NCBI GenBank assembly: GCA_964416905.1 | Contig: CAYQFL010000001.1 | Span: 94,647 to 158,646, forward strand | Direction: 5' to 3' | Origin: an uncultured Methanosarcinales archaeon | Lineage (GTDB): Archaea > Nanobdellota > Nanobdellia > Woesearchaeales > JASKKU01 | Length of the DNA: 64,000 nt | In this document: piece after piece, positions 6,218 through 48,603 of the stretch | Numbering within the stretch: the stretch's first letter is position 1 | Layout of the letters: the number at the start of each line of letters is the position of its first letter | Notes under the pieces: model-generated | Seen by the model: only the letters and a program-made list of their open reading frames with translations | The model's database searches: none | What the model was told of the DNA's origin: nothing | Made by a program: the position numbers and the translations under genes

Positions 6218-6235
6218 TTTTTAATATTCAATTTT

Positions 6236-8020: not shown

Positions 8021-8068
8021 AATAATTTAACCTCGAATATTTTTATCAATTTTTACTTTTTTTAGCAC

Positions 8069-8470: not shown

Positions 8471-8533
8471 TCTTACCCCCCTCTTTTTTTTTCAAAGTAA
8501 AAAATAAACATAAACAAATAACAAAATCTCAAA

Positions 8534-26101: not shown

Positions 26102-27379
26102 TTACACCTCTTTTAACGATAAATTATCAACTTTACCTTGTTTTATTCCAATCAAAAGATATTTTTTATTATCTTTATCAACAAACAAATGGGTACCTAC
26201 AATCAAACCATCTAAAGAATATTTGTAAAGCAGTTTTCCCTTATTCTGAGCAGAAGTCTGTGAAAGGTCTCCATCTCCCATCTGGGATGTTATTGATGAA
26301 ATACCCGGAACATAATTAACAACAAAAGAACCTGAGGAATCTAAAACATACAGCGAATAATCTAAAGAACCAACAACAATCTCAGGTTTCCCATCATCAT
26401 CTAAATCTGTAATAATTGGTGTAGAAACCACCCAGAAATCAGTTTCGAAATCCCATAATAGATTTCCTTTATAATCCAGCGCATAAACTTTGTTATCACA
26501 AGAACCAAAAACAATCTCCATGAACCCGTCTTTGTTTATATCTCCAACTGCTGGAGAAGCAACAATCCTTCCATTAGTCTTAAACTTCCAGAACAAATCT
26601 CCATGAGAATTTAAACAGTAAAGATTCTTGTCATATGAGCCAAAGATGATGAATTTCTCTTTAGAATTAGTAATATGTTCAACTACTGGTCTACATGTTA
26701 TTTTATCGTTAGTTTTAAAATCCCACTTGAAAACGCCATTTTTGTCAACAGCAATTAATCTACCATCATTGGCACCAAAAACAATCAGGTTGCCCTCGAA
26801 ACTATCTAAAAGTTGTGGAGATGATTCAACAGGCGACCTAACATAATATCTCCATAAGACTTGACCAGTGTAATCTACGCAATACAAATAACCTGCAGTG
26901 GTTCCAAAGATGATCTCATCAAAATCATCGTTATTGATATCAGTGATTAGGAAATCTGACATGATTTTACCATCAACCTTAAGCTTCCAAACAACTTTGC
27001 CATCAGAACTTAATACAAAAACTGTACCGCTCTCAGATCCAAAGATAATCTCTTTAGAACCGTCCTTATTTATATCTTTTATAATGGGTTTTGTATAAAT
27101 TGTGTACGATGATGATTCGTCCATAAACAAAGATTCTAGTTTTCCTAATTTTTCCTTCAAATCAAAGAGCCATTTAACCTTTGATTGGTCATTTATAACA
27201 AAAAGTTTGCCATCTTTAGTTCCAAAGACAACAACCATCTCGCTAGATTTAGGATCCAGATTTGCTACAACAGGACCTACAGACAAATCTGAAGGAGAAG
27301 TGAATTCCCAGACTTTTACAAAATTAAATTTTTTCTTTCGTTTGTTCAAGAGATTACCGAATAGAGCCATAAGTTTCAA
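26102..27379 (-). CDS. PQQ-repeat (BamB-like) beta-propeller protein
   Basis: Repeated 'DG.(V/L).W.(F/L)' and 'GS.D..(L/V)Y.(L/V)' blades across 425 aa. Confidence 0.7.
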   Translation of the reverse strand: MKLMALFGNLLNKRKKKFNFVKVWEFTSPSDLSVGPVVANLDPKSSEMVVVFGTKDGKLFVINDQSKVKWLFDLKEKLGKLESLFMDESSSYTIYTKPIIKDINKDGSKEIIFGSESGTVFVLSSDGKVVWKLKVDGKIMSDFLITDINNDDFDEIIFGTTAGYLYCVDYTGQVLWRYYVRSPVESSPQLLDSFEGNLIVFGANDGRLIAVDKNGVFKWDFKTNDKITCRPVVEHITNSKEKFIIFGSYDKNLYCLNSHGDLFWKFKTNGRIVASPAVGDINKDGFMEIVFGSCDNKVYALDYKGNLLWDFETDFWVVSTPIITDLDDDGKPEIVVGSLDYSLYVLDSSGSFVVNYVPGISSITSQMGDGDLSQTSAQNKGKLLYKYSLDGLIVGTHLFVDKDNKKYLLIGIKQGKVDNLSLKEV

Positions 27380-30400: not shown

Positions 30401-31452
30401 TGTAAAATAACCTGGCCATCGTAACAACAACTGTTACCTGCTCCGGGATTCTCAAAATCATCATTTGTGCCATCATCACCACAGCATTGGTCTACTCCAG
30501 AAAGCCAGATGTAAGCAGTACATCCCCTAGAAGACTCTTCACAATAAGTACTGCTTTCATCTCTATCATGATTAGTTGCCTCGCACCCTGATGTAGCATT
30601 ACAGGCAACATCTGTCACATAAGTTGAATCATCAACACAACACCAGGTCCAACCATTTGCACAAGAAAGCTGGCAACTGGTGCTGTTAGCATAAGAACCA
30701 TCATTACAAACCGCATCACCATAATAACAAGTTTGATTATCTACGTAACCCCATCCATAAACGCTTGCATTAGAACCGTTCTGTGCACTATTAACATTAC
30801 AGATAATATCACCATAATAACAATTTCTAACACTGCCAGAACCTAACAAAACACCATTACCTATCAAAGTTATATTTGTAACAAAAGAACCATCTAAACA
30901 CCTTTCACATTGCACATAAGTACTAGTACTTAAACTTGAGTTATAATAATAAGAATCGTCATCAAGCGCATCATCGCCACAACATTGTGTTCCAGAAACA
31001 ACTCCATCCATCCAAGTATACTCACAACCAGTTGCTGTACAATAACTTTCCTGCAAATCAGGATCTTTCCAGGTTCCCTGATCACAATAAAGGACATCTC
31101 CTAAAAACAAACCGCAAACGCCGTCAGGTGAACAAACATCAAACAACTCAAAAAAACCTATGTTTGCTTCAAGCGATGTCCCGAAAGCTAAAGCACCCGG
31201 CTGAAAAACCGTTAAAAGAAATCTCGCTTTAGTTGTTGCTGAATCCAAGTTAGAGCCTTGCAAACCCAAGGTTGTACTTTTAACATTAACATTCGTGCCT
31301 TGAGCTACAAACGCAAAAACAACATTGTTATTGATTAAAAAAACAAAAAACACAAGCAAAATAAGAAATAGAACGAAAAACAAATAAAGATGGGATTTTC
31401 TCTTACGGATTCTAAAATCTCCAAACAAAAAATTTTGGACGCCAAATCTCAT
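27424..31452 (-). CDS. Giant (1342 aa) secreted/surface-anchored Cys-rich protein with repeated 'CCGDD' modules and LamG/concanavalin-like domains
   Basis: N-terminal signal anchor (…HLYLFFVLFLILLVFFVFLI…). A ~500-aa Cys-rich region has recurring 'QCCGDD' motifs. Two Laminin_G_3-like segments follow ('DGDWHFIGFTFNGTNKRSFIDGV', 'DSWSYVVGVYNGTSINLFVN'), then Ig/PKD-like beta-rich repeats. Confidence 0.75.
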   Translation of the reverse strand: MRFGVQNFLFGDFRIRKRKSHLYLFFVLFLILLVFFVFLINNNVVFAFVAQGTNVNVKSTTLGLQGSNLDSATTKARFLLTVFQPGALAFGTSLEANIGFFELFDVCSPDGVCGLFLGDVLYCDQGTWKDPDLQESYCTATGCEYTWMDGVVSGTQCCGDDALDDDSYYYNSSLSTSTYVQCERCLDGSFVTNITLIGNGVLLGSGSVRNCYYGDIICNVNSAQNGSNASVYGWGYVDNQTCYYGDAVCNDGSYANSTSCQLSCANGWTWCCVDDSTYVTDVACNATSGCEATNHDRDESSTYCEESSRGCTAYIWLSGVDQCCGDDGTNDDFENPGAGNSCCYDGQVILHGSSYQYLFCWNGELYDCNNNVNLGFETDVADCSEADSSGWFCDADGDPAYWQDGLPLGCAGCDYNANCSQGYCDAEDGTTEPLYGLDIDPHYCFNCSECAGSPGNFVCSSVNTSLCQYDCAGPGGEDCDDIEPMTCRQNSDLYCDYGCISHDRDEGESYCTTTNGNCVALTWINGGETSSFGEYSAGNELECCGDDSGEYLVNSSMDSNYYAACCDDASDCVNSSNSCVPTGTVQNGFICFNARWDHLPTHDTPRIFLHAKVTDDLVGYWTLDDNVNDDSTYNNDGTNYGATNTLLGYSAGAFDFDGNDYIDLPADLGYSNQVSAFAWFKAEGAPPGGYHIVLGGQELEISVPTTGEVRTGVTTSNGRFVSNHGSGLTDGDWHFIGFTFNGTNKRSFIDGVDVGNLSVTGNLINSFSYRRIGRFGSSSTYYLNGSVDEVMIFNRTLTSKEVQELYNGVAYTKNDITCTPVNASDVDGDNLTYIVNWYKDGGSLLVLNMPFDSNVSSVSAGKVRDYSSYSNNGTLGGGNSNNAPTYKNGNNCMVGGCYEFDGNDYISIPTTAGGDFDIDTFSVAAWIYPTVSDANSRRIFQRASGTYGMYINSGRVYFYVDTTNDGGSWKSVSLPVTLDSWSYVVGVYNGTSINLFVNSNSNSVAQSGAVDDGATNVAYIGTHDSLSQFFVGRIDDFQIYNIALTSEQVKENYEAGLNHHQPFVLDYTMTSKHHNYSCDVTVNDGYGDSLTKSSAQIEVQNTPPTKPGLIYPGMNDILTNRQPQFQWSPVEDDDGDSITYNLDVTFDQCNTVNSEYCPGTNIHETGLTTLSYTPLQELDIAVYNWNVSAYDGENYSASSDLGTFSIEALINISLINDLISFGNLEVGKSYNTTSGSPQPFSIRNNGNVKVDIKANATQLFQRAALDTDAFRIKTRNLEANSINISGSAIDWINLASYLKKVIADLDYHDSSDEAYLDILVTVPPDEPSGTKTSNIIFQGELS

Positions 31453-34572: not shown

Positions 34573-37500
34573 ATGAGATTTTCAATTTCCAATCGAACTA
34601 ATAAATTTTTGTTGTTAGCAAGTTCTGTTACACTGCTATTTCTTTTAATAAGCATAATTGGAGATTTAACAATTGTGTCTGCAGCCGATGATAATGAGTG
34701 TGGTTGCCCTGACCCTAAAGAACGTAGTCGATGTAACGAAGATTTTACTATGGTAATTACAGAACATTATTTTTGTGAAGATGGCGAGTGTAAAATGCAG
34801 GAGTTTAGTTCAGTTTGTGCTGATTCAAGTTATTGTGATGATAATGAACTTGTATATGTTGAAAGTGTTTGTGTTGCGCCAGAGTATGGAGTAGCATACT
34901 GTGACCTCAAAGAAACACGAACATCTTGTGGTTCAAATGCAAGATGCATAGTTGATAAATGTATCAAAGAACAAGACTATGAAGATTATGATTGTAAGGG
35001 TGACAATATAATTAAACGTATAGGTGTATGCTATGATGCTAATGAAGATGGTGACTGTAGAGATCCTGGTGAAGTAGATATTGAAAGAGAAGTGTTTGTG
35101 AAGGATTGTAACGACTATAATGGTTGGTACTGTTCTGGGGAAACTGGTCAAGAGTATCGAGATTATACTTGCAAAGCTGGATCCTGTACTTCTTATGAAG
35201 TTACTGACACAAGAAGTTGCCCTTCATCAGCACCTTTCTGTTGCAATAGCGATAACGCTTGTCACCAATGTTGCAAAACAGATGATTGTCATGAGATCTT
35301 TGGACTAAATTACTTCTGCAATTCAATCACAAACCAATGTCAATGCTCTCCTGAAGATAAAGAAGAATTGGGTGCGGAATGTGGCCCTAATGGTTGCGAT
35401 CCGCAAGGGTTTGGACTCTGTGATTCCGGTAAAGAATGTGTTGGAAACTTCTGTGTTGATAAAAAAGACTTTAGAACAATTGTAGGTTATCTAAAAGTCA
35501 TAGGACATAATGATAAGGAAATTCTTGTGGAATTAATCCCTTATGATTCTTATCAAGAATCTACTGCAGGCCAGTACTGCTCAAAATTAAACGAATGGTT
35601 CTTTGGAAACCAAAAATGTAAAGGTAAGGGATACAACGAATGTGGTGGCATTCCAGGCAACGATGATATTGTTAATTTTCAAGTTTCAAATTATGAACTA
35701 AAAGATCAGAGTGTTATAATAAACTGTAATCAGAGAGGCCCAATAGACGGATGGTGTGATGGCTCTTCAAGCACTCCCGATTCTCTAACAATCAAATTGT
35801 GTGACCCAAAAAGCAACGTTCCGTGCGATTCTTCAACATATCATATAAATTTAGAGAAACTAGGACTAGATATAAACTGTGTTTATCTTGACGAGGAAAA
35901 GGAGAGCGACAAAAATTGTGAGTCTGAAAGCAAACTAATTCTAAGAGCAGCTAACAATTATGAAACTTGTGATGATTCTGGAGAAGATGTTTGCATCATG
36001 GGCAGATGCGTGAAATACGTATGCTATCATAATAACAGAATAGATGGCAGCGAAAGCTGTGACCCTGTAGCGCCACAAACATATAACGCTTCTGGAACCA
36101 TAGTCACAGAGGACGACATTACATGCTCATTACTTTGGATGAACCCAAAAGATAACGATCTTTCCTTAAAACCATCGTGCCTAAAAAGTTGCGTGATTAA
36201 CACTCGAAACTGCGAGCAATTATCTAGTTTATGCGGGAACTACAAATTAGATTCAAAGGAGAATTATGACGAACTTTGCGATATAAGAGAAGAACCTTTA
36301 ATAACAAAATACCTAAATGGTAATGAAATTGAAATAACAGCACAATTTAAAGATAAACATAGTTGTGCTGAAAAAGAAGGTTACATTGGTGATGCCAGCC
36401 TGCTTTCATGCAAAGGTTGTTTAGCCATAGATTATGAGAATTGTGAACAAGAAGCCATCAGTGGAGAGGATAAAACTGAAAAAACTTGTAATGATGGTTT
36501 AAACGAAGATTACTGGTATGACCTTTTCATTCCTGAAGGGGCGGATAGATCTGAATATATTATAGATAATTATCTTAATGAATTTGGTTATTTTGATAAG
36601 GAGAAACTTAAGTTTGACACAAGCAAATGTTTTAATGAAACAAATTGCTTTGATTGCTATGATATTGATTGTGATGGCAAAGAGGCTATCGATGGAAAAC
36701 TTTGCAATTTCAAAACTGAAAGAATGTGTAATGATAATTTTGACAACGATGGTGATGGTTTAATAGATAGTGAAGATAACGACTGCAATTCAGAGGGATA
36801 TAACCCCGAATTATCCTTAAAAGGATTTTGTAGTAGTACAAAACAATGTTTTGATGATGATTTCAACGAATGCCTGCCTGAGGGTTATAAACAATCAGTA
36901 AATAATAAAATAGTAATCTGTAGTGCTGGTAGATGGATTTCAGCAATAAAAGCAGAAGCTAACTTACTTTATGAAAACGCCATAAATAAACAAAAGTTCA
37001 CATTATACTGTAATGATTTTGGTGACGCCTTTGAAGATAATCAAGGGTATGTAATTTCATTAGAAAGTAAGCTTCCGAGCGGAGATGTGCAGGTTGGCGA
37101 TTTTATGAAATCTTACGGGAGCTTTTATGGCAAGTTCTGCGCGTTCAAAAGCAATGAAGATTATGCTATTTCAACAAGGATTAAAGGACTAGAAAATGAT
37201 CCTTCAAGATTAGCATTTGCAATGCAGTTGTTCTCAACGAATCCTTCATGTTGCAATGGAATTAATGATGATTCCACAACAAAAATCTCTAAGTGCGATG
37301 AAAACATTTCAATAAACAAGAAGTATGGAATTGTAATAAAAACAAACGAAGATATTGATGGAAAAGAACTTTTAAAGACAGAAGCTATCAATGAAAAGAT
37401 AAAAGCATTAAAAGATTATCTATCAATAATAGGAATTAACAATTTCGCGAGTGATAACCTTTGGAGAGGTTCGTTAACAGAAGCGCTTGCTTGGAAGAAA

Positions 37501-37788
37501 TCTGGTGAAAAAGAATTATTTGGGATCGTTGAAAATATCAACGGCACAATTTATGCAGTGGTCCTACTTACAAATGTAGGTACCAGTTTTGAGGATTCCT
37601 GTAGCATTATAAATTCTGAACAAACAATTAAAATCGGAGAGAATCTTGCAGGAATATGTCAAAATGTAAACGACGATGACTTCATAATTCACTGGGCAAT
37701 TCATAAAGAGGTGCCTAATAAAGAAAACCTTATTAAAATCTCTTTAGACAGGTTTGATACATTAGTAAAATCTATAAAGATAAATTAA
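34573..37788 (+). CDS. Secreted Cys-rich protein, paralog A (1071 aa) of a tandem triplet; carries a DxDxDG calcium-binding-type motif
   Basis: Signal peptide (…LLISIIGDLTIVSA|ADD). A unique ~570-aa Cys-rich N-region is followed by a C-terminal ~500 aa shared with the next two ORFs ('GYIGDASLLSCKGC', 'CNDGLNEDYWYDL', 'KTERMCNDNFDNDGDGLIDSEDNDC', 'FYGKFCAFKSNEDY', C-terminal 'FDTLVKSIKIN'). Confidence 0.8.
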   Translation: MRFSISNRTNKFLLLASSVTLLFLLISIIGDLTIVSAADDNECGCPDPKERSRCNEDFTMVITEHYFCEDGECKMQEFSSVCADSSYCDDNELVYVESVCVAPEYGVAYCDLKETRTSCGSNARCIVDKCIKEQDYEDYDCKGDNIIKRIGVCYDANEDGDCRDPGEVDIEREVFVKDCNDYNGWYCSGETGQEYRDYTCKAGSCTSYEVTDTRSCPSSAPFCCNSDNACHQCCKTDDCHEIFGLNYFCNSITNQCQCSPEDKEELGAECGPNGCDPQGFGLCDSGKECVGNFCVDKKDFRTIVGYLKVIGHNDKEILVELIPYDSYQESTAGQYCSKLNEWFFGNQKCKGKGYNECGGIPGNDDIVNFQVSNYELKDQSVIINCNQRGPIDGWCDGSSSTPDSLTIKLCDPKSNVPCDSSTYHINLEKLGLDINCVYLDEEKESDKNCESESKLILRAANNYETCDDSGEDVCIMGRCVKYVCYHNNRIDGSESCDPVAPQTYNASGTIVTEDDITCSLLWMNPKDNDLSLKPSCLKSCVINTRNCEQLSSLCGNYKLDSKENYDELCDIREEPLITKYLNGNEIEITAQFKDKHSCAEKEGYIGDASLLSCKGCLAIDYENCEQEAISGEDKTEKTCNDGLNEDYWYDLFIPEGADRSEYIIDNYLNEFGYFDKEKLKFDTSKCFNETNCFDCYDIDCDGKEAIDGKLCNFKTERMCNDNFDNDGDGLIDSEDNDCNSEGYNPELSLKGFCSSTKQCFDDDFNECLPEGYKQSVNNKIVICSAGRWISAIKAEANLLYENAINKQKFTLYCNDFGDAFEDNQGYVISLESKLPSGDVQVGDFMKSYGSFYGKFCAFKSNEDYAISTRIKGLENDPSRLAFAMQLFSTNPSCCNGINDDSTTKISKCDENISINKKYGIVIKTNEDIDGKELLKTEAINEKIKALKDYLSIIGINNFASDNLWRGSLTEALAWKKSGEKELFGIVENINGTIYAVVLLTNVGTSFEDSCSIINSEQTIKIGENLAGICQNVNDDDFIIHWAIHKEVPNKENLIKISLDRFDTLVKSIKIN

Positions 37789-37806: not shown

Positions 37807-40245
37807 ATGGGATTTTTTGAAAAAAGCTCAATTTTTACAAAAGGTATAATGCCTAAAGTGTTTAAGCTTTCTTTGATTATAGCAATAATTGCTATTAGCT
37901 TGCTAATTACAAGTTGCGGTGATGACGATTCTGATGCCGCCAGTGAACCTGACGAAGACAAGATAAATAAAAACCTGTTTCTAGGTTATATTAATGTCAA
38001 TTCAGATCAAGATAATGCTCTTGTAGATTATTCAATTATTGGTAACAAATACAACCTTGCTTCATCAATTCAATTCTGCAAACTTGCTGACAACATTTAT
38101 CATCGTGGTGCTTGCGCAGGTAAGGCATGGGATGAATGCGGTTTCTGGGATTTTAAAATGAGAGATTTCTTCTACTTCACACAACTTGATAATGAAACGG
38201 CAAAGGTTACTTGCTCTCAACGAGGCATATTTGATACTTGTTCTCCGTCCGATTATTCTTCAATAAATGCAAAAATCCGCTTATGTGATAGCAATGAAAG
38301 CGATAAAAATTGTACTGCAGGTATTAATGAAATTCTTATAGACCTCAATAAACAAGGTTATGATATAGATTGTACACGGCTTTTTGCGTTAACTAGTGGA
38401 GCGGACTGTGCGCCTTCAGACTTCCTTATACTTTACCATGTTAATGACTTCCAACCATGCGATCCTTACAATGATGAACTGGTATGTGTTTGGGGGAAAT
38501 GTACAAAATATGTTTGTATCCCGAATAACAAGTTAGACCCTTACGAGCTTTGTGATCCTAAAGCACAACTCTTTAATTTAAGCGGAAGAGAAGTATCTGG
38601 TACTGCGATTAGTTGCCAAGATTTCTCAGGGGTGCCAAGCACTGAAGGAGGAAAGCCTATTTGCAGAGATGATTGCACACCAGATATCTCTGAATGCACC
38701 CTTGAGCCAGGTCAGGTGCTTTGCCAGAATAATGTGTTAGAAAGCTTTCCAGACGTGGGTTATACTGAAGTGTGTGAGTGGGGTAATGGAGAAGAGTATT
38801 ATCTTCATCCAGATGGAACTCAAAAAGAGAAACAGTATATCTTCAAAACACAGAGTTTCTGTGCTCAACAGGAAGGTTATATCGGCGATGCATCTAATTT
38901 AGAATGCGATGCTTGTACTGAAATAAACTATGACAATTGTCTAAGCGTTCAGCTCACAAAACCAAAAGAAGAAAACTGTGGTAACGGTTTAAATGACGAT
39001 TACTGGTACGATCTTTACATCGAAGGAGACAATAGAACTGAGTATATCGCAGAGAATTATCTTGATGAATATGGTTATTTTGAGGATTACAAGTTTGACA
39101 CAACAAAATGCTTCAGTGAAACAAACTGCTCTGATTGCCATGATGTTGATTGTGATGGCAGAGTTACCTTCGGAAACAATTACTGTAACTTCAAAACTGA
39201 AAGAATGTGTAACGATAACTTTGACAACGATGGCGATGGCTTAATTGATGAACAAGATAGTGATTGCAGTTTTGAAAGATATAATCCAGATTTATCGCTA
39301 AAAGGATTATGCGATGCTGAAGAGAAATGTTTTGATGAAAGTGAACTTGAATGCATAGATGACTCAGCAGTATTTACAAAGAATAATAAGGCATTTATAT
39401 GTAACGAAGGAAACTGGATTAACGAAATAAAACTTATCTCGGCCTTAAGTTATGCTAAATTAAAAAATCAACAATCCCTGGTACTTTATTGTAACGACCC
39501 CGCTGATTTCACAACTGGAAAAAGTTATGTAATCGAACTCAATTCTAAAATACGAGGTACTCAGGAGACGGTTTCCGAGTTCATAGGAACACAAGAACAA
39601 GCTAATGCACTTTATGGAAAGTTCTGCGCTGCAAAAAGTGATGACGAATATCTTCTCGGAACGATTTTAAAAAACAAAAACGAAATACATCACAGCATTT
39701 TACTATTCTACCCACTTGGAACAATATGTGATGGAATTAACAAAGATGCTGAGCAACTTCAAAGATGCAATAACACCCAAATGTTTATGAATTATAAAAC
39801 AGGTATAGTATTAAAAACAAATATCTTTAGTAGTGATCAAGTAGAATTATTTAACGGAATTAATGAAATCGATAACAAGATTAAAGAGTTAAAAAAGGCT
39901 GGCGGACAATACTTGGTGACCAATTCACTTGAAGATTTAGAGAAAACCGGAGATATTGAAGCATTTGCGTTGAAGAAAAATGAAGATAAAGAATTATTAG
40001 GTATTATCGCTAAAGTAAACTCAACTTGGTACTCTATTGTTTACATAAAAAATGTACCTTCATTTGCTGAAATTTGTAAATCTATGACTTTAAACATCGC
40101 AAGCGGAGATATGACCAGAACTGTCACTTGCAAGCAAGAAATAGGTACAAACAACTTTGTGATTGCATGGACAATACCTACAGAACAAACGTTAATCTAT
40201 TCAAAAGCCAAATTCGACGAACTAGTTAAGGAAATAAGGATTTAG
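37807..40245 (+). CDS. Secreted/lipobox-like Cys-rich protein, paralog B (812 aa)
   Basis: N-terminal anchor ending 'LLITSCGDDDSD' (lipobox-like). It aligns colinearly with paralog C along the whole length and with the C-terminal half of A. It contains 'CNDNFDNDGDGLIDEQDSDC'. Confidence 0.8.
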   Translation: MGFFEKSSIFTKGIMPKVFKLSLIIAIIAISLLITSCGDDDSDAASEPDEDKINKNLFLGYINVNSDQDNALVDYSIIGNKYNLASSIQFCKLADNIYHRGACAGKAWDECGFWDFKMRDFFYFTQLDNETAKVTCSQRGIFDTCSPSDYSSINAKIRLCDSNESDKNCTAGINEILIDLNKQGYDIDCTRLFALTSGADCAPSDFLILYHVNDFQPCDPYNDELVCVWGKCTKYVCIPNNKLDPYELCDPKAQLFNLSGREVSGTAISCQDFSGVPSTEGGKPICRDDCTPDISECTLEPGQVLCQNNVLESFPDVGYTEVCEWGNGEEYYLHPDGTQKEKQYIFKTQSFCAQQEGYIGDASNLECDACTEINYDNCLSVQLTKPKEENCGNGLNDDYWYDLYIEGDNRTEYIAENYLDEYGYFEDYKFDTTKCFSETNCSDCHDVDCDGRVTFGNNYCNFKTERMCNDNFDNDGDGLIDEQDSDCSFERYNPDLSLKGLCDAEEKCFDESELECIDDSAVFTKNNKAFICNEGNWINEIKLISALSYAKLKNQQSLVLYCNDPADFTTGKSYVIELNSKIRGTQETVSEFIGTQEQANALYGKFCAAKSDDEYLLGTILKNKNEIHHSILLFYPLGTICDGINKDAEQLQRCNNTQMFMNYKTGIVLKTNIFSSDQVELFNGINEIDNKIKELKKAGGQYLVTNSLEDLEKTGDIEAFALKKNEDKELLGIIAKVNSTWYSIVYIKNVPSFAEICKSMTLNIASGDMTRTVTCKQEIGTNNFVIAWTIPTEQTLIYSKAKFDELVKEIRI

Positions 40246-40270: not shown

Positions 40271-42640
40271 GTGAAAAACATGAATTTTTTTGAAAAGAAA
40301 TCCAATTTAAAGGCGAATCTAAATGCGGGTAGATTATTTTTACTGCTTTTAGTAGTGATTGTTGTAAGCTTACTAAATGCAAGTTATGTGAACGCTAGGG
40401 TAATTGGATATGTGAGCATAAACCCTAACCAGTGGAACAATGTAATTGATTATTCTGTTAGCAGCTCGTCTACCCAAGCCACTTCAGCTAAATTTTGCGA
40501 CCTGGCAGACAACCTGTTTAATAATAACGGATGTGGAGACAAAACATGGGGAGAATGTGATTTCTGGGATTTTCAAATGAAGGATTATGTGTATTTTGAA
40601 AATATAAACGACAACGAAGTGGGCCTTACTTGTTCTCAACGGGGACTATTTGATGGCTGTTCAGGTTCTTCTGCTTTTTATCCAACAATAAAATTATGTG
40701 ATAGCAGTTATGAAAATTGTGTTGCTAATAGTGGTGAAATTGTTATAGACCTTAAAAAAGTGGGTTTATCTAAGAAGTGTACAAGGCTTGGTGCTAGCAC
40801 ATCTGGCGACGAATGTTCACCTGACGACACACTCAAACTTTATACAAAGAACAACTATGAAGTATGCGCTGAAACTCCTGAAGGTGCAGATTATGAACTA
40901 AGATGTATAAGTGGAAAATGTGCAAGGTATCAGTGCATAAACGACAACTATCAATTAGACCCGTATGAGCCTTGTGATCCGGGAGTACAAAAATTCAATG
41001 TAGGTGGTGAAATAAAAACTGCGGACGAGATTACATGTTTGGATTTTGATATGTATCCAAATAGTGAGGGAGAAAGACCAATCTGCGGTAATGATTGTAA
41101 ACCTGACCTTAGTATGTGCACATCTCAACCAAGCCTTTGCCCAGATTATAAAATTGAAAAATACAATGTACTGGATTATGTCGAAAAATGCGATTTAGCT
41201 AAAACTCCTGAAAGTTATGTTCATCCTGACGGAACCAAGAAAACAAAACAACATATATTCTCATCAAAAGCATTTTGTGCTCAACAGGAAGGTTATATCG
41301 GTGATGCTTCATATTTAGAATGCGAGGGTTGTACTGAAATCAGCTATGATGCTTGCCCAACAGTTCAACTCACAAAACAAAAAGAGCAAAATTGCGGGAA
41401 TGGTTTAAATGACGATTACTGGTACGATCTTTACATCGAAGGAGACAATAGAACTAAGTATATCGCAGAGAATTATCTTGATGAGCAAGGTTATTTTGAG
41501 AATTATAAGTTTGACACAAGCAGATGTTTTAGTGAAACGAATTGCTCTGATTGTTATGATATTGATTGCGACGGCAAAGTCACTTACGATGGTAAATACT
41601 GTAACTTCAAAACTGAAAGAATGTGTAACGATAACTTTGACAACGATGGTGACGGCTTAATTGATGAACAAGATAGTGATTGCAGTTTTGAAAGATATAA
41701 TCCACATTTATCGCTAAAAGGATTATGCGATGCTGAAGAGAAATGTTTTGATGAAAGTGAACTTGAATGCATAAATGATTCAGAGGTTTTTGTGAAAGAC
41801 AAAACGTTTGTATGTAAAGATGGAAACTGGATTAATGAAATAAAACTCATCTCAGCGCTAACTTATGATAAGCTAAAAGATCAACAATCATTAATACTTT
41901 ATTGTAACGACCCCGCAGATTTCACAAACCAAAGAGGTTACGTAATTGACATCATGAATACTAAAACTGCAACCGGTATGAACACATTTGATTTCATGTC
42001 ATCTCAGAGAGCGTTATATGGAAAATTCTGTGCAGCGAAAACGGATGATTATTATCTCATAGGAACTGTTTTAAAAAGCAAAGAGGCAATAAGTAATGCA
42101 GTACTCTTATTTAATTCAAATGGAACAATATGTGATGAGATTACAAACAACGATAACATATTACATCAATGTAAGAACACTCAAGTTTTCTTAAACTATA
42201 AAACAGGCATACTATTAAAGACAAATATCTTTAATGATGGAGCACAATTATTTAACGGAATTAATGAAATAAATACCAAGATTGAAGAGTTAAAAAGCGC
42301 GGGCGAGCCTTATCTAGGATATAACTCACTTCAAGACCTAGAAAAAAGCGGAGAAATTGAAGCGTTTGCGTTAAAGAAAAGTGGGGAGAAAGAACTACTG
42401 GGTATAATTGCTAAAGTAAACTCAACTTGGTATGCCATTGTTTACATAAAAAATGTGCCATCCTTTACTGAAGTTTGTGACACTATGAACGAAAAAGCAA
42501 CCTTAACGATAGTAGATACGCCAATTAAATGCCAGGAAATTAACAACAATTTTGTAATCGCTTGGAGAATAGCTGATGAATCAGTGTTGGAAGAGTCTAA
42601 GTATAAATTCGACAAACTAGTTAAAGAATTAAAGCTATGA
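40271..42640 (+). CDS. Secreted Cys-rich protein, paralog C (789 aa)
   Basis: Signal peptide (…LLNASYVNA|RV). It is highly similar to paralog B and includes a ~380-bp near-identical nucleotide stretch. Confidence 0.8.
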   Translation: MKNMNFFEKKSNLKANLNAGRLFLLLLVVIVVSLLNASYVNARVIGYVSINPNQWNNVIDYSVSSSSTQATSAKFCDLADNLFNNNGCGDKTWGECDFWDFQMKDYVYFENINDNEVGLTCSQRGLFDGCSGSSAFYPTIKLCDSSYENCVANSGEIVIDLKKVGLSKKCTRLGASTSGDECSPDDTLKLYTKNNYEVCAETPEGADYELRCISGKCARYQCINDNYQLDPYEPCDPGVQKFNVGGEIKTADEITCLDFDMYPNSEGERPICGNDCKPDLSMCTSQPSLCPDYKIEKYNVLDYVEKCDLAKTPESYVHPDGTKKTKQHIFSSKAFCAQQEGYIGDASYLECEGCTEISYDACPTVQLTKQKEQNCGNGLNDDYWYDLYIEGDNRTKYIAENYLDEQGYFENYKFDTSRCFSETNCSDCYDIDCDGKVTYDGKYCNFKTERMCNDNFDNDGDGLIDEQDSDCSFERYNPHLSLKGLCDAEEKCFDESELECINDSEVFVKDKTFVCKDGNWINEIKLISALTYDKLKDQQSLILYCNDPADFTNQRGYVIDIMNTKTATGMNTFDFMSSQRALYGKFCAAKTDDYYLIGTVLKSKEAISNAVLLFNSNGTICDEITNNDNILHQCKNTQVFLNYKTGILLKTNIFNDGAQLFNGINEINTKIEELKSAGEPYLGYNSLQDLEKSGEIEAFALKKSGEKELLGIIAKVNSTWYAIVYIKNVPSFTEVCDTMNEKATLTIVDTPIKCQEINNNFVIAWRIADESVLEESKYKFDKLVKELKL

Positions 42641-42641
42641 T

Positions 42642-43409
42642 TCAAGCTTTTGCGATAAAATAAAATATTTCATTTTTTGTTTTTTTATAATAAAAATCAA
42701 AGCTCAATCTTGACAACATTTTCTCTAACCACGTCCTTCTATGAAACCTCATATATTTACCAGACAAAGTTTTAAGCGGAAAGGAAACAATGAGATGTTT
42801 AACAGCAAGGCTTACAATTAATTCCTCAGCGTGCTTGTGCCCTTTATCTTCAATCAAATCAAGCACCTTAAACAAAAATGCAACATTGGCTTTAGGCAAT
42901 TCATCAAGTTTTGCCAAGAAATCCATCTGAACAGCCTCGCCATTAATCTGGTTCTTCAAGAAGAAATCGTTTACAGCACTAACTATGTCCTCGCGTAAAT
43001 CGCATGCAAAGTAATAATTAACCTTAATTTCGTTAAAAGGGAAATAAATCGGATTTAGCCCGCAGCCTAAATCAATAATTCTCTTTATTTTATGTTCCCT
43101 AAGGAATTCTATCACAAAATCAGGTAAAGAACCTCGCTCTAAAGAAGAAATATGCGTTCCTTTATCTTTAACATACATCACAGACTTCTTATACAATTTC
43201 GCTTTTATAAGCGAGACAAACTCTTTGAAGACCTTAGACCTCTCCAGATTTTTAACATTCAATACCTTTTCATATAGCTTTGGGTTTTTACGGACAACGT
43301 CAAAAAAAACAGATTCTATTGTCTCTTTAGAAAATGAAGAGTATCTCTTTCTCTTAGCAAGCACATTAAAAACCTCGCTAAGTACCCTTTCATCATTTAA
43401 ATGATTCAT
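42642..43409 (-). CDS. 16S rRNA (guanine1405-N7)-methyltransferase-like protein, Rmt/ArmA (FmrO) family SAM-dependent MTase
   Basis: SAM motif I 'IIDLGCGLNPIYF' (cf. RmtB 'LDIACGLNPLAL', ArmA 'ILDFGCGFNPLAL') and C-terminal 'LIVSFPLKTLSGKYMRF' (cf. 'AVSFPTRSLGGRGKGME' / 'FVISFPIKSLSGKEKGME'). The motifs are recalled from memory of the family; no search was run. Confidence 0.6.
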   Translation of the reverse strand: MNHLNDERVLSEVFNVLAKRKRYSSFSKETIESVFFDVVRKNPKLYEKVLNVKNLERSKVFKEFVSLIKAKLYKKSVMYVKDKGTHISSLERGSLPDFVIEFLREHKIKRIIDLGCGLNPIYFPFNEIKVNYYFACDLREDIVSAVNDFFLKNQINGEAVQMDFLAKLDELPKANVAFLFKVLDLIEDKGHKHAEELIVSLAVKHLIVSFPLKTLSGKYMRFHRRTWLEKMLSRLSFDFYYKKTKNEIFYFIAKA

Positions 43410-43490
43410 ACTCCTTACATAAAACTAAACAAAAGATATTTAAAAACTGTTCCATTCATAAATCATAATTTAATAATAATTACTTAAAAG

Positions 43491-45251
43491 GTGCCAAAAA
43501 TGGAAAAAAAGGTTGTCCCTGAGGAAATAAATCAGGAGTTAGAAAAGATGCAAAAGATGCTTGATAAGTTCAAAGAAAAAGTTTTAGAGAAATTCAGCGA
43601 TTATGTTTTAGGCATATCTCTTCTGCCTCCGCAAAAAAACGAAAAAGGAGAGAAAAAAGACAACAAAATTAACCTTCTAATTCTAATAAACGATAACGAT
43701 ACCAAGAAGATGACTCCTCAGGAACTGGAAAAGAAACTTAACACAATCTTTCAAAACATGGCTAAAGAGATAGACGAAAGGTTAAATCCTTCTTGTTTGC
43801 TAATCAGTGAACTATGGCAGAACTGTTATGAAGCCAAGTACGATTTCGTGAAGATGATTGCCACTGGTGCAGCCATTTATGATAAAGGCATGCTTTCTGC
43901 CATAAAAATTGCTGAAGTCCATAAAACCATGGTTCTAAGCAAATTTGAGAGATACATTGTCTCGTATGTTCTATCCGGGTCAATAACTCAAGGAAGAGCC
44001 ACAGAGAAATCTGATGTTGATGTGTTTGTTGTGGTTGACGACACAGATGTAAAAAAGATGACTCGAGGCGAATTGAAAGAGAAATTAAGAGCTATCATTT
44101 TAGGTATGGGCATTGAAGCAGGAGAAGCCACAGGGATACTGAATAAATTGAATATTCAAGTCTACATATTAACTGAGTTCTGGGAATCTCTTAGAGATGC
44201 CAACCCTGTAATATTTACTTTGTTAAGATATGGTGTGCCTTTCTATGACAGAGGTATATTCATGCCCTGGAAGCAGTTATTGCTTATGGGAAAGATAAAG
44301 CCAAGCAGAGAAGCTATTGATATGTTTATGAGCAGCGGTGAGAGAATCATCAAAAACGTTAAAACAAAAATAACTGAGATAGGTATGGAAGATATTTACT
44401 ATGCATTACTAACTCCTTCCCAAGCAGCATTAATGCATTACGGAATTGCGCCACCCACTCCTAAAGAAACGCCTAAACTAATGCGCGAAATCTTTGTGGA
44501 AAAAGAAAAATTATTGAAAGAAGAAGAGATATTAATCTTAGAAAGAGTCATCTCTTTAAGAAAAGCTGTTGAACACAAACAAAAGAGTAGAATCACTGGA
44601 AAAGAAATTGATGAATTGTTGGAAGAGGGCGAGAATTACCTTAAGAACATTGGTAAACTGTTTAGCAAGATCGACAACATAAAAAGCAAAGAATCATTAT
44701 CTCAATTGATTAGTTCAATAAAACTCATCATGCGTAAACTATTATTCTATTTTGGGTTCAAAAAAGTTGACGATAAATCCCTATTAACAACCTTCAAAAA
44801 AGAGCTAATTGACAGCGGCGAGATTGAAGAGAAATACTTCAAGACCATAAAAGAAGTTCTAAGCGCAGAAAATAGTAAAAAACAACTAAAGAAACAGGAT
44901 GTTGAGTTGCTAATTAAGAAAGGTGATTCTGCAATAAAAGCTCTACAAGATTACTTCGAAAAGAAGAGATTCTTTGATATTGAAAGAGCAAAAATCAGAG
45001 TAAGCTATGGAAAAGACAAGGTTGGTGAAGTGTTGTTCACAAAAAACAAAGTTTACATTATCAAAGATATAAAAGAAAAAAATTGTTTTGTCAGCGATTT
45101 GAAAAAATGGGAACTTAAAGAAATTAGCTTCGACCAATTAGATTCAGAAATCAGAGACGAGAAAACTGAGCTAAAGAAAGAAATAAGTGTTGATGAGTTA
45201 AACAAAATAAAAGAGACCTTTGGAAAAACTTGTAAAATAATACTAAAATAA
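43491..45251 (+). CDS. Tandem nucleotidyltransferase-fold protein (one degenerate and one intact pol-beta NTase domain) with a helical C-terminal region, possibly HEPN-like
   Basis: The second repeat has the canonical 'GSITQGRATEKSDVDVFVVVDD' (GS…DxD) motif. The first repeat aligns with it ('KINLLILINDNDTKKM' vs 'DVDVFVVVDDTDVKKM') but has lost the catalytic residues. The C-terminal part contains 'RKAVEH' (R-x4-H). Confidence 0.5.
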   Translation: MPKMEKKVVPEEINQELEKMQKMLDKFKEKVLEKFSDYVLGISLLPPQKNEKGEKKDNKINLLILINDNDTKKMTPQELEKKLNTIFQNMAKEIDERLNPSCLLISELWQNCYEAKYDFVKMIATGAAIYDKGMLSAIKIAEVHKTMVLSKFERYIVSYVLSGSITQGRATEKSDVDVFVVVDDTDVKKMTRGELKEKLRAIILGMGIEAGEATGILNKLNIQVYILTEFWESLRDANPVIFTLLRYGVPFYDRGIFMPWKQLLLMGKIKPSREAIDMFMSSGERIIKNVKTKITEIGMEDIYYALLTPSQAALMHYGIAPPTPKETPKLMREIFVEKEKLLKEEEILILERVISLRKAVEHKQKSRITGKEIDELLEEGENYLKNIGKLFSKIDNIKSKESLSQLISSIKLIMRKLLFYFGFKKVDDKSLLTTFKKELIDSGEIEEKYFKTIKEVLSAENSKKQLKKQDVELLIKKGDSAIKALQDYFEKKRFFDIERAKIRVSYGKDKVGEVLFTKNKVYIIKDIKEKNCFVSDLKKWELKEISFDQLDSEIRDEKTELKKEISVDELNKIKETFGKTCKIILK

Positions 45252-45274: not shown

Positions 45275-46360
45275 CTATATTAATGCTGAGAAGAACGAAC
45301 TTAATACCTTTACCAATATTGTAAAAAGTGTGAGAGAAGCTGCTAAAAAAGCAGGGATGTATTTTATACCTGATTTTAGATTACCATCCTTTATCTGAGA
45401 AATAATAAAAGCAGAGAAAATCGATGTTATCGATAAAACTGCATAAGCCAAATTAATGAATTCTTCCGGAGTCATGGTTGGCTCATCTACTTCAGTTATA
45501 CCTTTTAACATCTGTGTAATACCGGAGCCTCCAGCAACACTTAACGAAGACAAGTTCGCCTGACTTATTTTTGAAATAAAACTCTGTAGAATTACTAAGA
45601 ACTGTGTTGATAACGCAAAAAGAAACGGTGCCACAAAAACAACGATTATCACTATGAAAATAACATAACTAAGATTTGTTGCTGCAATATCTTTTTTTAG
45701 CTGAAAAGTATCAACTAATTCAGATGTAATCATATCTACGATAGGTGTTATTTTCGCACCGCTTTCTAAAGATTCTGCTATAATTGAGAAAGTCCTCTTG
45801 ATCTCAGCAGAATCATATTTGTTAGCAAAAGTCATGAGTGCTGACGCAGTATCTTCACCTATAGAAATTCGCTTTACAACCAACTGCATCTCTTTTGCTA
45901 AATCCCCAAACTCTGGCTTGATTGAATTCCACAAAGCTTGCTCTAATGTTGTACCGCCTTTAAGATTTTCAGATAGGGACTTTAGGAAATCTGGCAATAA
46001 TGCTTCCATTCTCCTGGTTCTTTGGAACGCTTGATAATCAAAGAAAAGTAGAATCCCTGAAACAACGATAAAAAAATACAGCGCTAAATACGAGATTGTA
46101 ACTACAAATATAGACAAAGGTTGAAGCACAACCATCGAGGTAACATCATAAAATCCAAAAACAGTTGTCAAATCAACATTATACACAAACCACAAGTCTA
46201 CAAAAATTACAGAAACTAAACCCAAAAGAAATAGTATACCTAGAATAAAATACGGTGGACTATCAAAACCCGCTTTGATAGAATTTTCGATTAATCCTTT
46301 TCTTAAACGAGTCGGAAATAGAGACTCGCCAAAACTTTTGAAAGTTCGTTTAAAATCCAT
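45275..46360 (-). CDS. FlaJ/TadC-like type II secretion system F-domain membrane protein (pilus/archaellum platform, C-terminal half)
   Basis: Polytopic membrane protein with a cytoplasmic helical T2SSF-like segment. It lies in an operon with a FlaI-like ATPase. Confidence 0.55.
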   Translation of the reverse strand: MDFKRTFKSFGESLFPTRLRKGLIENSIKAGFDSPPYFILGILFLLGLVSVIFVDLWFVYNVDLTTVFGFYDVTSMVVLQPLSIFVVTISYLALYFFIVVSGILLFFDYQAFQRTRRMEALLPDFLKSLSENLKGGTTLEQALWNSIKPEFGDLAKEMQLVVKRISIGEDTASALMTFANKYDSAEIKRTFSIIAESLESGAKITPIVDMITSELVDTFQLKKDIAATNLSYVIFIVIIVVFVAPFLFALSTQFLVILQSFISKISQANLSSLSVAGGSGITQMLKGITEVDEPTMTPEEFINLAYAVLSITSIFSAFIISQIKDGNLKSGIKYIPAFLAASLTLFTILVKVLSSFFSALI

Positions 46361-46367
46361 TTTCGCA

Positions 46368-47189
46368 TCATAGATTAATAGTTGGTCTGTTAACTTTTAT
46401 CATAACAATGAAAAAGTATTCAACTAATGCTAAAAACAACAAAATAACGCCATAAAAAAAGGGGCTAATCTCTATTCCAAGGAAAGTAAGGAATATACTT
46501 GATAGTCCAAGACCTAGCGAAGGAAAGACAACCGCTAAAACCAGGTAAAGTAAAACAATAGTGTTCAACTTTTTTCCATAAGCCTTAATTTCTATTGATA
46601 GCTCTTCTTTTATTGAATCAATCGTTTCTTTTAGAGTCTTGCCAATCTCCGCACCGGTTTTTATTGAAACAACTATAGGATACAATATCTTTTTAAACTT
46701 GATTGAAGGCGTAACCTCTCTAGCAGTTTCTAAAGCTTCTTCAACAGGAGTACCTGTATTAATTGCCATCACAATACCTTTAAAAAAATCTCCAGCTACA
46801 CCATAACTCTTAGCTGCATCATAAAGAACCTTCATCAAAGGTTCACCAGCGCTTATTTTCAATAAGATATACCTTCCAGCAAACAGAACTTCTTTATCCA
46901 GTTCTCTGCTTAAACGATAAATCTTCTGGTCTAAAGCTTTAAAATTATATTTAAAAAAAATCAAATAAAACAAAAAAAACGCTAAAGGATATAAGAACAG
47001 ATAATTGAAACTCGTGAAAAAAGCTAATGCTAAAACAATCATCGCAGAAAGCATCAAAGAAGCATTCCTGACCTTTCTTACATACTGCTGCGGAGTTAAA
47101 TCTATTTTAGCTAAAATTAATTTCCTTTTCAGATCTGCATAATTTATGGAAGCCATTTTATTTTCTATTTCGATAATACCTAGAAACAA
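46368..47189 (-). CDS. FlaJ/TadB-like type II secretion system F-domain membrane protein (platform, N-terminal half)
   Basis: '…AGRYILLKISAGEPLMKVLYDAAKSYGVAGDFFKGIVMAINTGTPVEEALETA…' is T2SSF-like. It overlaps the 3' end of the ATPase gene. Confidence 0.55.
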   Translation of the reverse strand: MFLGIIEIENKMASINYADLKRKLILAKIDLTPQQYVRKVRNASLMLSAMIVLALAFFTSFNYLFLYPLAFFLFYLIFFKYNFKALDQKIYRLSRELDKEVLFAGRYILLKISAGEPLMKVLYDAAKSYGVAGDFFKGIVMAINTGTPVEEALETAREVTPSIKFKKILYPIVVSIKTGAEIGKTLKETIDSIKEELSIEIKAYGKKLNTIVLLYLVLAVVFPSLGLGLSSIFLTFLGIEISPFFYGVILLFLALVEYFFIVMIKVNRPTINL

Positions 47190-48603
47190 GCAAACCTACT
47201 TTATTAACATCTGTTATCTTCTTTTCAACCAACCAATCTAAAAATTTCTTTTTTTCCTCTATGTTTTTGTAAACTTCTTCAGGTTTAAGTCCCGCATACA
47301 ATTGCATTGTCTCTAATAATCTTTCAGGTTTATTGAGTTGGACATACTTACCTGTCTTTAAATCATATTGAAAAATCACACGCTCATCTCCTGTTTCTGT
47401 AATTTCTGCTATTTGCAAAGTGACTCTTTTTCCAGTCCGTCTATTCCTATACTGTACCACAAGCATACCTAGTGAAGATAACATAAGTTTGGGAATATCT
47501 ATTGGCGGGTTTGTTAAACGAGATATTGCTTCCTTTGCGTTATTTGCGTGCAAAGTAGCATAAACTGAGTGACCTGTATGCATCGCTTCAAATAAAACCT
47601 CAGCTTCTCTTTTCCTCCTAATTTCTCCAACAATAATTCTGTCAGGACGCATCCTCAAAGAGTTGACAACCAAATCCAGCATCGTAACTTCGCCTTTACC
47701 CTCAGGGTTTGGCAATCTTGTTTCCATAGGCACCCAATGAAGATGTTCTGGCAAAGATAGTTCTCTGGTATCTTCAATGCTAATAATTCTTTGGTTCGCA
47801 GGGAAGAAATTACTCAATGCGTTAAGCATAGATGTCTTACCTGAACCAGTTCCACCTACGATAAGTGTGGAAAGCTCGTATTCCATAGCCAGCCAGATCC
47901 ATGCTGCGATCTCTGAATTGATTGTTTTAGTGAGAATCATATCGGTTATTGTCCAGGGTTTATCAGCAAATTTCCTTATAGTTAAAGTGTTTCCTTTAGT
48001 TGAGATGGGCGCTAAAGTCGCATTAACCCTGTCTCCTGTTTTCAAAGAAGCATCCATTAATGGTTCAAGCACAGTTATATCTTTCCCAACATCTCTACCA
48101 ATTAAAGTTGCGTAATGTCTAATCTTTCTTTCGCTATCCACATATATATTTGTCTTAACCCAACCATACTTCCTATGGTAAGCCCATACTGGCTCTTTAG
48201 CATTGTTAACAACAATTTCTTCTAAATTTTTATCATGAAGAAGGATTTCTATTTTGCCTAAACCTATGCTTTCCTGTATAAGATGATTAACTAAAAAATC
48301 CGAAGTGGGCTTATCTATATGCGGAAAGTATTTCTTTATTAAAACTTTAAGCTCATTAATAAAACTCTCCTCAAGAGATTTATAACCTCCTTCGAATGAA
48401 AAACTTATTGCACCAATATTAACTTTTGATACAAAATCCTCTTTAATTTTCTCAAGAAGCGCCTCAGTTACCTTACTTAAGTTTAGAATAGAAACCAGAT
48501 AAAATGGAACAAACTCATCTTCATAATCAACAATCCTTACACTAACTATCAGTTTGTTAAACTGAATTTCATATTCCTCTAAAAGCTTCTCTCCTCGAAC
48601 CAT
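47158..48603 (-). CDS. FlaI/TadA/VirB11-family type IV pilus/archaellum assembly ATPase
   Basis: Walker A 'GGTGSGKTSMLNAL', Asp box, Walker B and His box ('ATLHANNAKEAISRL') typical of the archaeal FlaI/GspE superfamily. Length is 481 aa. Confidence 0.85.
   Translation of the reverse strand: MVRGEKLLEEYEIQFNKLIVSVRIVDYEDEFVPFYLVSILNLSKVTEALLEKIKEDFVSKVNIGAISFSFEGGYKSLEESFINELKVLIKKYFPHIDKPTSDFLVNHLIQESIGLGKIEILLHDKNLEEIVVNNAKEPVWAYHRKYGWVKTNIYVDSERKIRHYATLIGRDVGKDITVLEPLMDASLKTGDRVNATLAPISTKGNTLTIRKFADKPWTITDMILTKTINSEIAAWIWLAMEYELSTLIVGGTGSGKTSMLNALSNFFPANQRIISIEDTRELSLPEHLHWVPMETRLPNPEGKGEVTMLDLVVNSLRMRPDRIIVGEIRRKREAEVLFEAMHTGHSVYATLHANNAKEAISRLTNPPIDIPKLMLSSLGMLVVQYRNRRTGKRVTLQIAEITETGDERVIFQYDLKTGKYVQLNKPERLLETMQLYAGLKPEEVYKNIEEKKKFLDWLVEKKITDVNKVGLLVSRYYRNRK

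Follow-up and report, generated by a model that had tools for sequence, protein, structure and literature searches.

A relative of the Rmt/ArmA/FmrO 16S rRNA methyltransferases in DPANN archaea and its place beside type IV pilus genes

The minus strand of a 64,000-nucleotide stretch of archaeal DNA (hereafter the window; contig CAYQFL010000001.1 of GenBank assembly GCA_964416905.1, positions 94,647 to 158,646) carries, at 42642..43409, a gene for a methyltransferase of the FmrO/Arm family that depends on S-adenosylmethionine (SAM). The gene is an ATG-initiated open reading frame (ORF) encoding 255 residues plus a stop codon, and was assigned through profile, PDB and model matches. A preliminary reading made from the letters alone (the sequence-only reading) had taken its product for an archaeal homologue of Rmt, ArmA and FmrO, enzymes that methylate N7 of G1405 in 16S rRNA and confer aminoglycoside resistance. 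This identification is borne out: the Pfam family FmrO (PF07091) is matched above its threshold (46.4 bits, E=4.3e-12; gathering score 27), the leading matches by sequence and by fold are all G1405 methyltransferases, and the runner-up Pfam matches are generic methyltransferase domains far under their own thresholds. The NCBIfam model NF000466, 'Rmt family 16S rRNA (guanine(1405)-N(7))-methyltransferase', is matched over its full length (104.2 bits, E=7.2e-30), residues 12-252 of the protein pairing with positions 2-253 of the 254 in the model. Significant sequence matches in the PDB are limited to eight chains (E 2.5e-11 to 2.2e-7), each deposited as a 16S rRNA methylase: RmtB (3b89, 3frh), Sgm (3lcu), RmtC (8ghu, 6pqb), RmtF (6pi9), ArmA (3fzg) and 6cn0, the last three named from PDB entry titles. 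Sgm gives the weakest match of the set (E=2.2e-7), and the first one beyond these chains lies at E=1.8. The protein is a genuine archaeal relative of the bacterial rRNA methyltransferases that block aminoglycosides.

The two motifs given in the sequence-only reading as signatures of the family (GCGxNPL and VSFPxxSLxG..GME) are likewise present, at residues 111-123 and 206-222, far beyond what chance would give, and they align with the authentic RmtB, ArmA, RmtC, RmtE and RmtF sequences. Motif I, IIDLGCGLNPIYF (43041..43079, minus strand), is the glycine-rich loop that binds SAM and aligns with the bacterial D(I/L/A)(A/G)CG(L/F)NP; its residues D113, G117 and P120 do not vary among 42 archaeal homologues. 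The second stretch, LIVSFPLKTLSGKYMRF (42744..42794, minus strand), comprises strand beta-6 and the equivalent of RmtC Loop237-246, and includes K213, K218 and M220.

An AlphaFold2 model of the protein, built on a 42-sequence alignment, reached a predicted local distance difference test score (pLDDT) of 91.7 and a predicted template modelling (TM) score of 0.87, with one weak segment at residues 80-84 (pLDDT <50). Ranks 1-16 of the Foldseek matches in the PDB are all occupied by RmtB, Sgm, RmtC, RmtF and ArmA (E 6.5e-13 to 3.9e-8), the top matches having TM scores of up to 0.72 over ~270-290 aligned columns, and unrelated class I methyltransferases start at E=3.6e-7 (BchU), some five orders of magnitude weaker than the top match. 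The PF07091 match of 46.4 bits is thus accompanied by PDB and Foldseek lists in which no other Rossmann-fold family comes out on top; chains of the NpmA/Kam type were found neither among the PDB sequence matches to E<=10 nor in the top 50 fold matches. The N-terminal helical docking domain (residues 1-84; 43158..43409, minus strand) has helices at residues 3-18, 21-24, 28-41, 43-50 and 59-76 in the model and is basic (20 K+R vs 10 D+E, isoelectric point 9.95). Its N1 subdomain is present with an archaeal-specific insertion, an extra helix in the window protein, and its N2 subdomain is reduced to ~8 residues, a linker that includes the weakly modelled segment 80-84. The C-terminal class I (Rossmann-fold) methyltransferase domain follows (residues 85-255; 42645..43157, minus strand), in which strands alternate with helices.

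For the residue-level comparison, authentic RmtC, RmtB, ArmA, RmtE and RmtF sequences from plasmid records were aligned with the window protein and its archaeal homologues; in the N-terminal part, at ~20% identity, these alignments are uncertain. Residue roles were taken from the study of RmtC on the 30S subunit by cryo-electron microscopy and mutagenesis (PMC10288597, 2023) and from the description of the SAM site of Sgm (PMC2896518). In RmtC the universally conserved Lys204 touches N7 of the flipped G1405, Tyr60 stacks between SAM and G1405, Lys236 contacts G1405, Arg241 contacts U1495, Met245 wedges into helix 44 (h44), Loop237-246 distorts h44 and the N2 subdomain contacts h24 (PMC10288597). 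The Lys204 equivalent, K181 (codon 42867..42869, minus strand), is invariant in all 18 sequences of one alignment and is Lys in 79 of 81 DPANN sequences (those of 80 GTDB loci plus the window). The Tyr60 equivalent, Y79, is always Y or F among the DPANN sequences, K213 (Lys236) and M220 (Met245) are conserved, and K218 occupies the position of Arg241, where ArmA and RmtE have Lys as well. The SAM site is conserved too, with S88 (RmtC Ser107, SAM carboxyl), R92 (Sgm Arg108), D137 (RmtC Asp160/Sgm Asp156, SAM ribose) and D163 (Sgm Asp182) aligned, as are D113 and G117 of motif I. Among the N1 docking residues, R22-Y23 (RmtC Lys20-Tyr21) and K69 (Arg50) are conserved, and the positions of Arg39 and Lys47 are Ser in the window protein. 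In short, the predicted protein keeps the catalytic and base-flipping machinery, and its docking module is remodelled.

The distribution of the family was examined at several scales. A word-indexed search returned 183 homologues at 90% clustering; all 120 of those listed carry PF07091, and those with organism names among the 120 are Woesearchaeota or Nanoarchaeota. IMG labels some archaeal homologues '16S rRNA (guanine(1405)-N(7))-methyltransferase'. An exhaustive HMMER search over 1.84 billion representatives (50% identity) gave 989 matches at E<=1e-3, of which 409 reached E<=1e-10. Besides the query, no more than three representatives were better than E=1e-38, and the subclade of the window protein is therefore small. 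Searched with the single protein, 185,579 species genomes yielded no close relative. An alignment-based, pattern-seeded scan of one genome per GTDB species found relatives in at least 282 species genomes, a lower bound as the seed pattern [IV][LI]D[LI]GCGLN favours the archaeal motif I, with bacterial relatives outside its reach. The best 80 of these at least 282 relatives all come from archaeal metagenome-assembled genomes (MAGs), whose informative names are Woese-, Pace-, Nano- or Parvarchaeota, and the DPANN species with the gene derive from groundwater, sediment, marine and hot-spring metagenomes. Several of these MAGs (L004, L005, L006, L011, L020, L025, L040-L042, L044, L059 and L065; binchicken/SRP co-assemblies) are titled 'uncultured Methanosarcinales archaeon'. 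Their FmrO genes are of DPANN type, and the neighbouring proteins of L004 and L005 are 51-88% identical to those of the window; the labels look like placeholders rather than real taxonomy.

In a neighbour-joining tree of BLOSUM62 distances, which has no support values and whose deep branching order is not to be over-read, the 81 DPANN sequences cluster separately from five acquired bacterial enzymes. The window protein forms with those of L004 and L005 a basal subclade that lacks N2 and in which the bacterial-type K/R-Y motif is retained; the majority of the other DPANN members carry E-L at the K20-Y21 docking pair and Arg at the position of His54. The gene is most likely a vertically inherited chromosomal member of a family characteristic of the Nanoarchaeota/Woesearchaeota/Pacearchaeota group of DPANN archaea.

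The sequence-only reading had also described the codon usage as native, the gene as long resident and its presence in an archaeon as unexpected. The first two statements hold. The gene has a G+C content (GC) of 0.332 and a third-position value (GC3) of 0.344, which match the window (GC 0.339) and the neighbouring genes (GC3 0.24-0.36), and this native composition goes with a core chromosomal setting and the lack of any mobile-element match among the scanned ORFs. The third does not: the archaeal protein NEQ545 has been known since 2010 (PMC2896518), the gene was recognised as a signature gene in 2013 (PMC3655853) and relatives occur in at least 282 species genomes.

The window holds 61 ORFs of >=100 residues, and among the 30 large ones scanned against Pfam no match to transposase, integrase or other mobile-element families was found; neither were efflux or aminoglycoside-modifying genes found near the methyltransferase gene. 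Most scanned neighbours encode housekeeping proteins. The Pfam matches include Taw1 (wyosine synthase), a MiaB/CDKAL-type radical SAM enzyme, FKBP26, TatD, DnaJ/DnaK/GrpE, a GAN-like DHH protein, PGK, a class II (AspRS-type) aminoacyl-tRNA synthetase and an aIF-2B-family protein. The host is archaeal, given Taw1, FKBP26, the archaeal-type pilus genes and the GAN-like DHH protein. On their plasmid records rmtB, rmtC, rmtE and armA have IS26 or IS91 beside them, unlike the window gene, and an origin through a mobile element or recent horizontal gene transfer was rejected on the native GC and GC3 and the absence of mobile-element families among the scanned ORFs. Metagenomic contigs, the longest of 181.7 kb, encode the identical protein as well. 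The gene looks like an ordinary gene of its lineage and not an acquired resistance gene.

The methyltransferase gene starts from an 81-nucleotide divergent intergenic region in which a TATA-like element, TTTTTAAATA (43437..43446, minus strand), lies 28-37 nucleotides upstream of the ATG, a position that would fit a leaderless or near-leaderless archaeal transcript. A scan for sigma-70 promoters and terminators gave sites no commoner than in shuffled sequence, the sigma-70 model not being applicable to archaea. An Rfam scan of the window found a single tRNA-Thr and no rRNA gene.

The neighbourhoods of the gene were compared by clustering the ORFs of the 80 related loci together with those of the window. 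The conserved arrangement is an 11-gene type IV pilus/adhesin cluster, present in about half of the DPANN species, in the order sec522, sec191, pil141, pil248, methyltransferase, T2SSF, T2SSF', T2SSE, pil183, pil195, pil152. The methyltransferase gene, which in most of these loci lies at about 5700-6500, is the sole plus-strand gene of an otherwise co-directional cluster in 43 of the 76 loci with enough upstream sequence and in 38 of the 71 with enough downstream sequence (the pilus-cluster loci are L007, L009, L010, L012-L014, L017-L019, L021-L024, L026, L027, L029-L035, L038, L039, L043, L045, L048, L050, L055, L057, L058, L060, L066, L067, L070-L075, L078, L081 and L082). It is closely packed there, its stop codon overlapping that of T2SSF by a median of 8 nucleotides and its start lying a median of 50 nucleotides from that of pil248. 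The T2SSF and T2SSE proteins of the cluster were confirmed by Pfam, one small protein has a weak match to the archaeal Pilin_N family and the remaining small proteins have pilin-like hydrophobic N-termini. T2SSE/T2SSF homologues adjoin the FmrO-family gene in 46 of the 81 DPANN loci, and in the tree the genes with this linkage belong for the most part to a single crown clade and otherwise to the window subclade. In ~33 of the 81 loci, hidden Markov models of the cluster genes detected no pilus genes near the methyltransferase gene, on which ground an obligatory coupling to the pilus was rejected. The census of archaeal type IV pili makes no mention of a linkage to a methyltransferase (PMC4858521), nor did literature text searches find a report of one.

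The subclade of the window has its own gene order: T2SSE, T2SSF, T2SSF, an antisense gene for a 586-residue protein with a nucleotidyltransferase domain, the methyltransferase gene and three genes for Cys-rich secreted proteins. In the window the two T2SSF/TadC-like membrane platform genes (PF00482; 45275-46360 and 46368-47189) and the gene for the T2SSE/VirB11-type ATPase (PF00437; 47158-48603) lie upstream of the methyltransferase gene and on the same, minus, strand, and together (45275..48603) they represent an archaeal type IV pilus-like system. Between them and the methyltransferase gene, divergent from the latter, stands the nucleotidyltransferase-domain gene (43491..45251, plus strand), for which the ATG at 43500 is the likelier start, giving 583 residues as in the public gene call. 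Its product has a minimal Pol-beta-type nucleotidyltransferase core (PF01909, 26.5 bits), no other recognisable domain and no meaningful PDB relative. Besides the window, four of the 80 GTDB loci (L004 4158-5891, L005 4191-5930, L040 6811-8649, L041 8029-9657) have a homologue no more than 1.5 kb from the FmrO gene, and its orientation is not the same throughout; it is directly adjacent to the FmrO gene except in L041, and L040 and L041 have no pilus genes. A role of this neighbour as an aminoglycoside nucleotidyltransferase, which would make the locus a 'resistance island', was considered and rejected, as it scores 23 bits against ANT(9) (cutoff 340), has only the generic Pol-beta core and reaches 20.8 bits with MntA.

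On the other side, three tandem paralogous genes on the plus strand (34573-37788, 37807-40245 and 40271-42640) encode Cys-rich secreted proteins of 1071, 812 and 789 residues. They are convergent with the methyltransferase gene, the last ending one nucleotide before its stop codon, and L004 and L005 have homologues on the downstream side of their FmrO gene. The proteins match no Pfam family, give a weak match to an 'acidic double-disulfide repeat' and are nearly identical to one another over long stretches towards the C-terminus; they probably belong with the pilus locus, as surface or adhesin proteins.

Further features lie elsewhere in the window, whose host is presumably a genome-reduced DPANN archaeon. 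A glycogen-metabolism cluster (3441-11030, minus strand) encodes a glycogen synthase whose Pfam match is Glycogen_syn (PF05693, 444 bits), the eukaryote-type glycogen synthase family, together with GH57, a GDE_C amylo-1,6-glucosidase, a GT4/GT5 glycosyltransferase and a GalT-like HIT protein. A 1342-residue protein with two Laminin_G_3/pentraxin-like (concanavalin-type lectin) domains (27424-31452, minus strand) is adjoined by a beta-propeller (PQQ/FG-GAP) protein (26102-27379) and a KaiC-like ATPase (25283-26098), a group that may represent more cell-surface or host-interaction machinery. Two DHH/DHHA1 proteins, apparent paralogues, are encoded ~500 nucleotides apart on the plus strand (56920-58365 and 58894-60420); the former has a DHH-CID domain and a weak CDC45 match, and is thus GAN/RecJ-Cdc45-like.

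On balance we consider it probable, if only by a little, that the gene encodes a vertically inherited DPANN enzyme for constitutive (housekeeping) m7G methylation of the equivalent of G1405. The family, the fold, the conserved catalytic and h44-contacting residues, the native chromosomal status and the wide DPANN distribution are demonstrated by the data above. The substrate, the site and the housekeeping role are what we infer from them. The enzyme would dock on the assembled small ribosomal subunit near h44/h45, where the guanine equivalent to Escherichia coli G1405 would be flipped out of h44 and methylated at N7 with SAM as donor; any insensitivity to 4,6-disubstituted deoxystreptamine aminoglycosides would come as a side effect or an added advantage. 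The details of docking cannot be those of the bacterial enzymes, given that N2 is missing, a helix is inserted in N1, His54 is replaced by Tyr and the loop is two residues shorter. Retention of the gene in genome-reduced lineages argues for a function needed by the cell itself.

A number of points weigh against this interpretation. The NF000466 score of 104.2 bits does not reach the equivalog cutoff of 250, and by the NCBIfam curation standard the protein is a homologue and not an equivalog, as far as profile scores indicate; its identity to RmtB, RmtC, RmtE, RmtF and ArmA in the alignment is just 21-26%. The N2 subdomain is essentially deleted, with ~8 residues between the equivalents of Tyr60 and Ser107 vs 26-46 in the bacterial enzymes, and in RmtC the N2 double mutants K67E/K71E and R68E/K72E abolish resistance (PMC10288597). 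Substitutions also fall on positions at which RmtC mutants (H54A and R211E) lose activity (PMC10288597): that of His54 is Y73 in the window protein and R, H or N in other DPANN members, and that of Arg211, which stabilises A1408 in RmtC (PMC10288597), is D188, although ArmA, RmtE and RmtF themselves have Q or A there. The loop that distorts h44 has 6 residues vs 8 in the bacterial enzymes and is shorter in every archaeal member. The orthodox function of NEQ545 was called unclear by its discoverers (Husain et al., 2010; PMC2896518), and activity data for archaeal members were not found in the literature searched. The universal 1392-1406 region of 16S rRNA was not found in the window or in L001-L083, and conservation of the G1405 target in the host is presumed from general knowledge. 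Finally, a ribosomal role does not explain the fixed place inside the pilus gene cluster.

Several of these observations would be accommodated by a shifted substrate, that is, the same fold and family acting on another rRNA or tRNA nucleotide or on a non-RNA target tied to the type IV pilus, which we regard as unlikely. Such a shift would agree with the remodelled docking module (N2 lost in the window subclade, E-L in most other DPANN members, His54 replaced by R or Y, a shorter loop), with the antisense position of the gene, wedged between two pilus operons in 43 of the 76 assessable loci, and with the T2SSE/F linkage kept, differently arranged, in the window subclade. However, the contacts to the flipped guanine and h44 (K181, K213, K218, M220 and Y79) are exactly those conserved, and the N-terminal domain is strongly basic, as RNA binding would need; moreover, ~33 of the 81 loci have no pilus genes and the pilus-linked ones form mainly one crown clade, the pattern that inherited gene order gives, and tight wedging alone can passively preserve synteny. 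Inherited gene order, kept because the gene is wedged between two operons, is accordingly the likeliest cause of the pilus placement. We give a low probability to the idea that the enzyme, lineage-wide and constitutive and no resistance factor, owes its antisense position to a real functional or regulatory coupling with the pilus. The arrangement in question comprises a divergent promoter region of ~50 nucleotides, which would be shared with the pilin operon, and a 3' end that overlaps T2SSF, and the linkage persists, rearranged, in the window subclade; the coupling might consist, for instance, in regulating ribosome modification together with the pili for host attachment, or in a target different from G1405.

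Two further explanations concern the role and the origin of the gene. As a dedicated resistance determinant, m7G1405 would protect the archaeal ribosome from the aminoglycosides of neighbours, as do sgm, grmA and fmrO; since its chemistry is identical to that of the housekeeping methylation favoured here, all the family evidence applies to it equally. Some archaeal ribosomes are aminoglycoside-sensitive, and the best NCBIfam match of the divergent neighbour is nominally ANT(9), but this match (23 bits vs a cutoff of 340) covers a generic Pol-beta core for which MntA scores about the same. An occurrence in hundreds of DPANN species from varied habitats, at a fixed chromosomal position in about half of them, better fits an ancestral lineage gene than a resistance gene tied to particular environments, and no mobile elements, efflux or aminoglycoside-modifying genes were found among the scanned ORFs nearby, so that we hold this role to be quite unlikely. 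The other explanation, a recent horizontal acquisition of a bacterial Rmt/ArmA-type gene, or the DPANN archaea as direct reservoir of the clinical low-GC armA/rmt genes, could appeal to the fact that armA is AT-rich too and that the best NCBIfam model is the pathogen 'Rmt' model. It could also cite the placement of NEQ545 nearer the pathogen-derived enzymes (PMC2896518). It is contradicted by the identity of 21-26% and the tblastn values of the window protein against the bacterial enzymes (E 1e-10 to 2e-2), the native composition, the failure to find mobile elements among the scanned ORFs and the deep, diverse clade that the DPANN sequences form on their own; recent transfer is effectively refuted.

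If housekeeping methylation of the G1405 equivalent is correct, DPANN archaea would be the first lineage known in which this 'resistance' modification belongs to the normal make-up of the decoding centre, and the Rmt/ArmA family would have an old housekeeping branch; resistome surveys would otherwise miscount the archaeal genes as aminoglycoside-resistance genes. New here are the breadth of the gene among DPANN archaea, the comparison of residues with the RmtC-30S structure of 2023, the subclade without N2 and the pilus-cluster placement, the last being the only feature that might repay further work.

Among characterized systems, the acquired enzymes RmtB, RmtC, RmtE, RmtF and ArmA (PDB 3frh, 6pqb/8ghu, 6pi9, 3fzg) have in common with the window protein the N1 helical and Rossmann folds, the SAM-binding residues, the equivalents of Lys204, Lys236 and Tyr60, Arg or Lys at 241 and Met245, whereas the window protein is N2-less, has an extra N1 helix, Tyr for His54, Asp for Arg211 and a loop two residues shorter, and is chromosomal. 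Sgm, GrmA and FmrO of actinomycetes (PDB 3lcu/3lcv) belong to the same family and are, as the window gene is, chromosomal and intrinsic; the fold of Sgm matches the model with E=6.5e-13 and a TM score of 0.72. Producer self-resistance genes sit in or near biosynthetic clusters, whereas no aminoglycoside biosynthesis context surrounds the window gene. The m1A1408 methyltransferases NpmA and KamB constitute a separate family, although they use the same 30S docking surface and give a comparable resistance phenotype (PMC10288597).

The closest described system is NEQ545 of Nanoarchaeum equitans. Husain et al. (2010; PMC2896518) presented it as the first Arm-family ortholog from an archaeon, described its C-terminal motifs as perfectly conserved and its N-terminal domain as diverged, with one helix missing, and placed it nearer the pathogen-derived than the producer enzymes. 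Podar et al. (2013; PMC3655853) later listed the gene among the signature genes specific to Nanoarchaeota, as the only one with a functional annotation; work on NEQ545 or other archaeal FmrO/Arm members beyond these two papers was not found in the literature searched. By its published description NEQ545 resembles the window protein in being a chromosomal DPANN protein with conserved catalytic motifs and a diverged N-terminal domain. The window protein differs from it in coming from an AT-rich lineage of mesophile type, with Woesearchaeota as nearest named relatives, and in belonging to a small basal subclade that has kept the bacterial-type K/R-Y motif.

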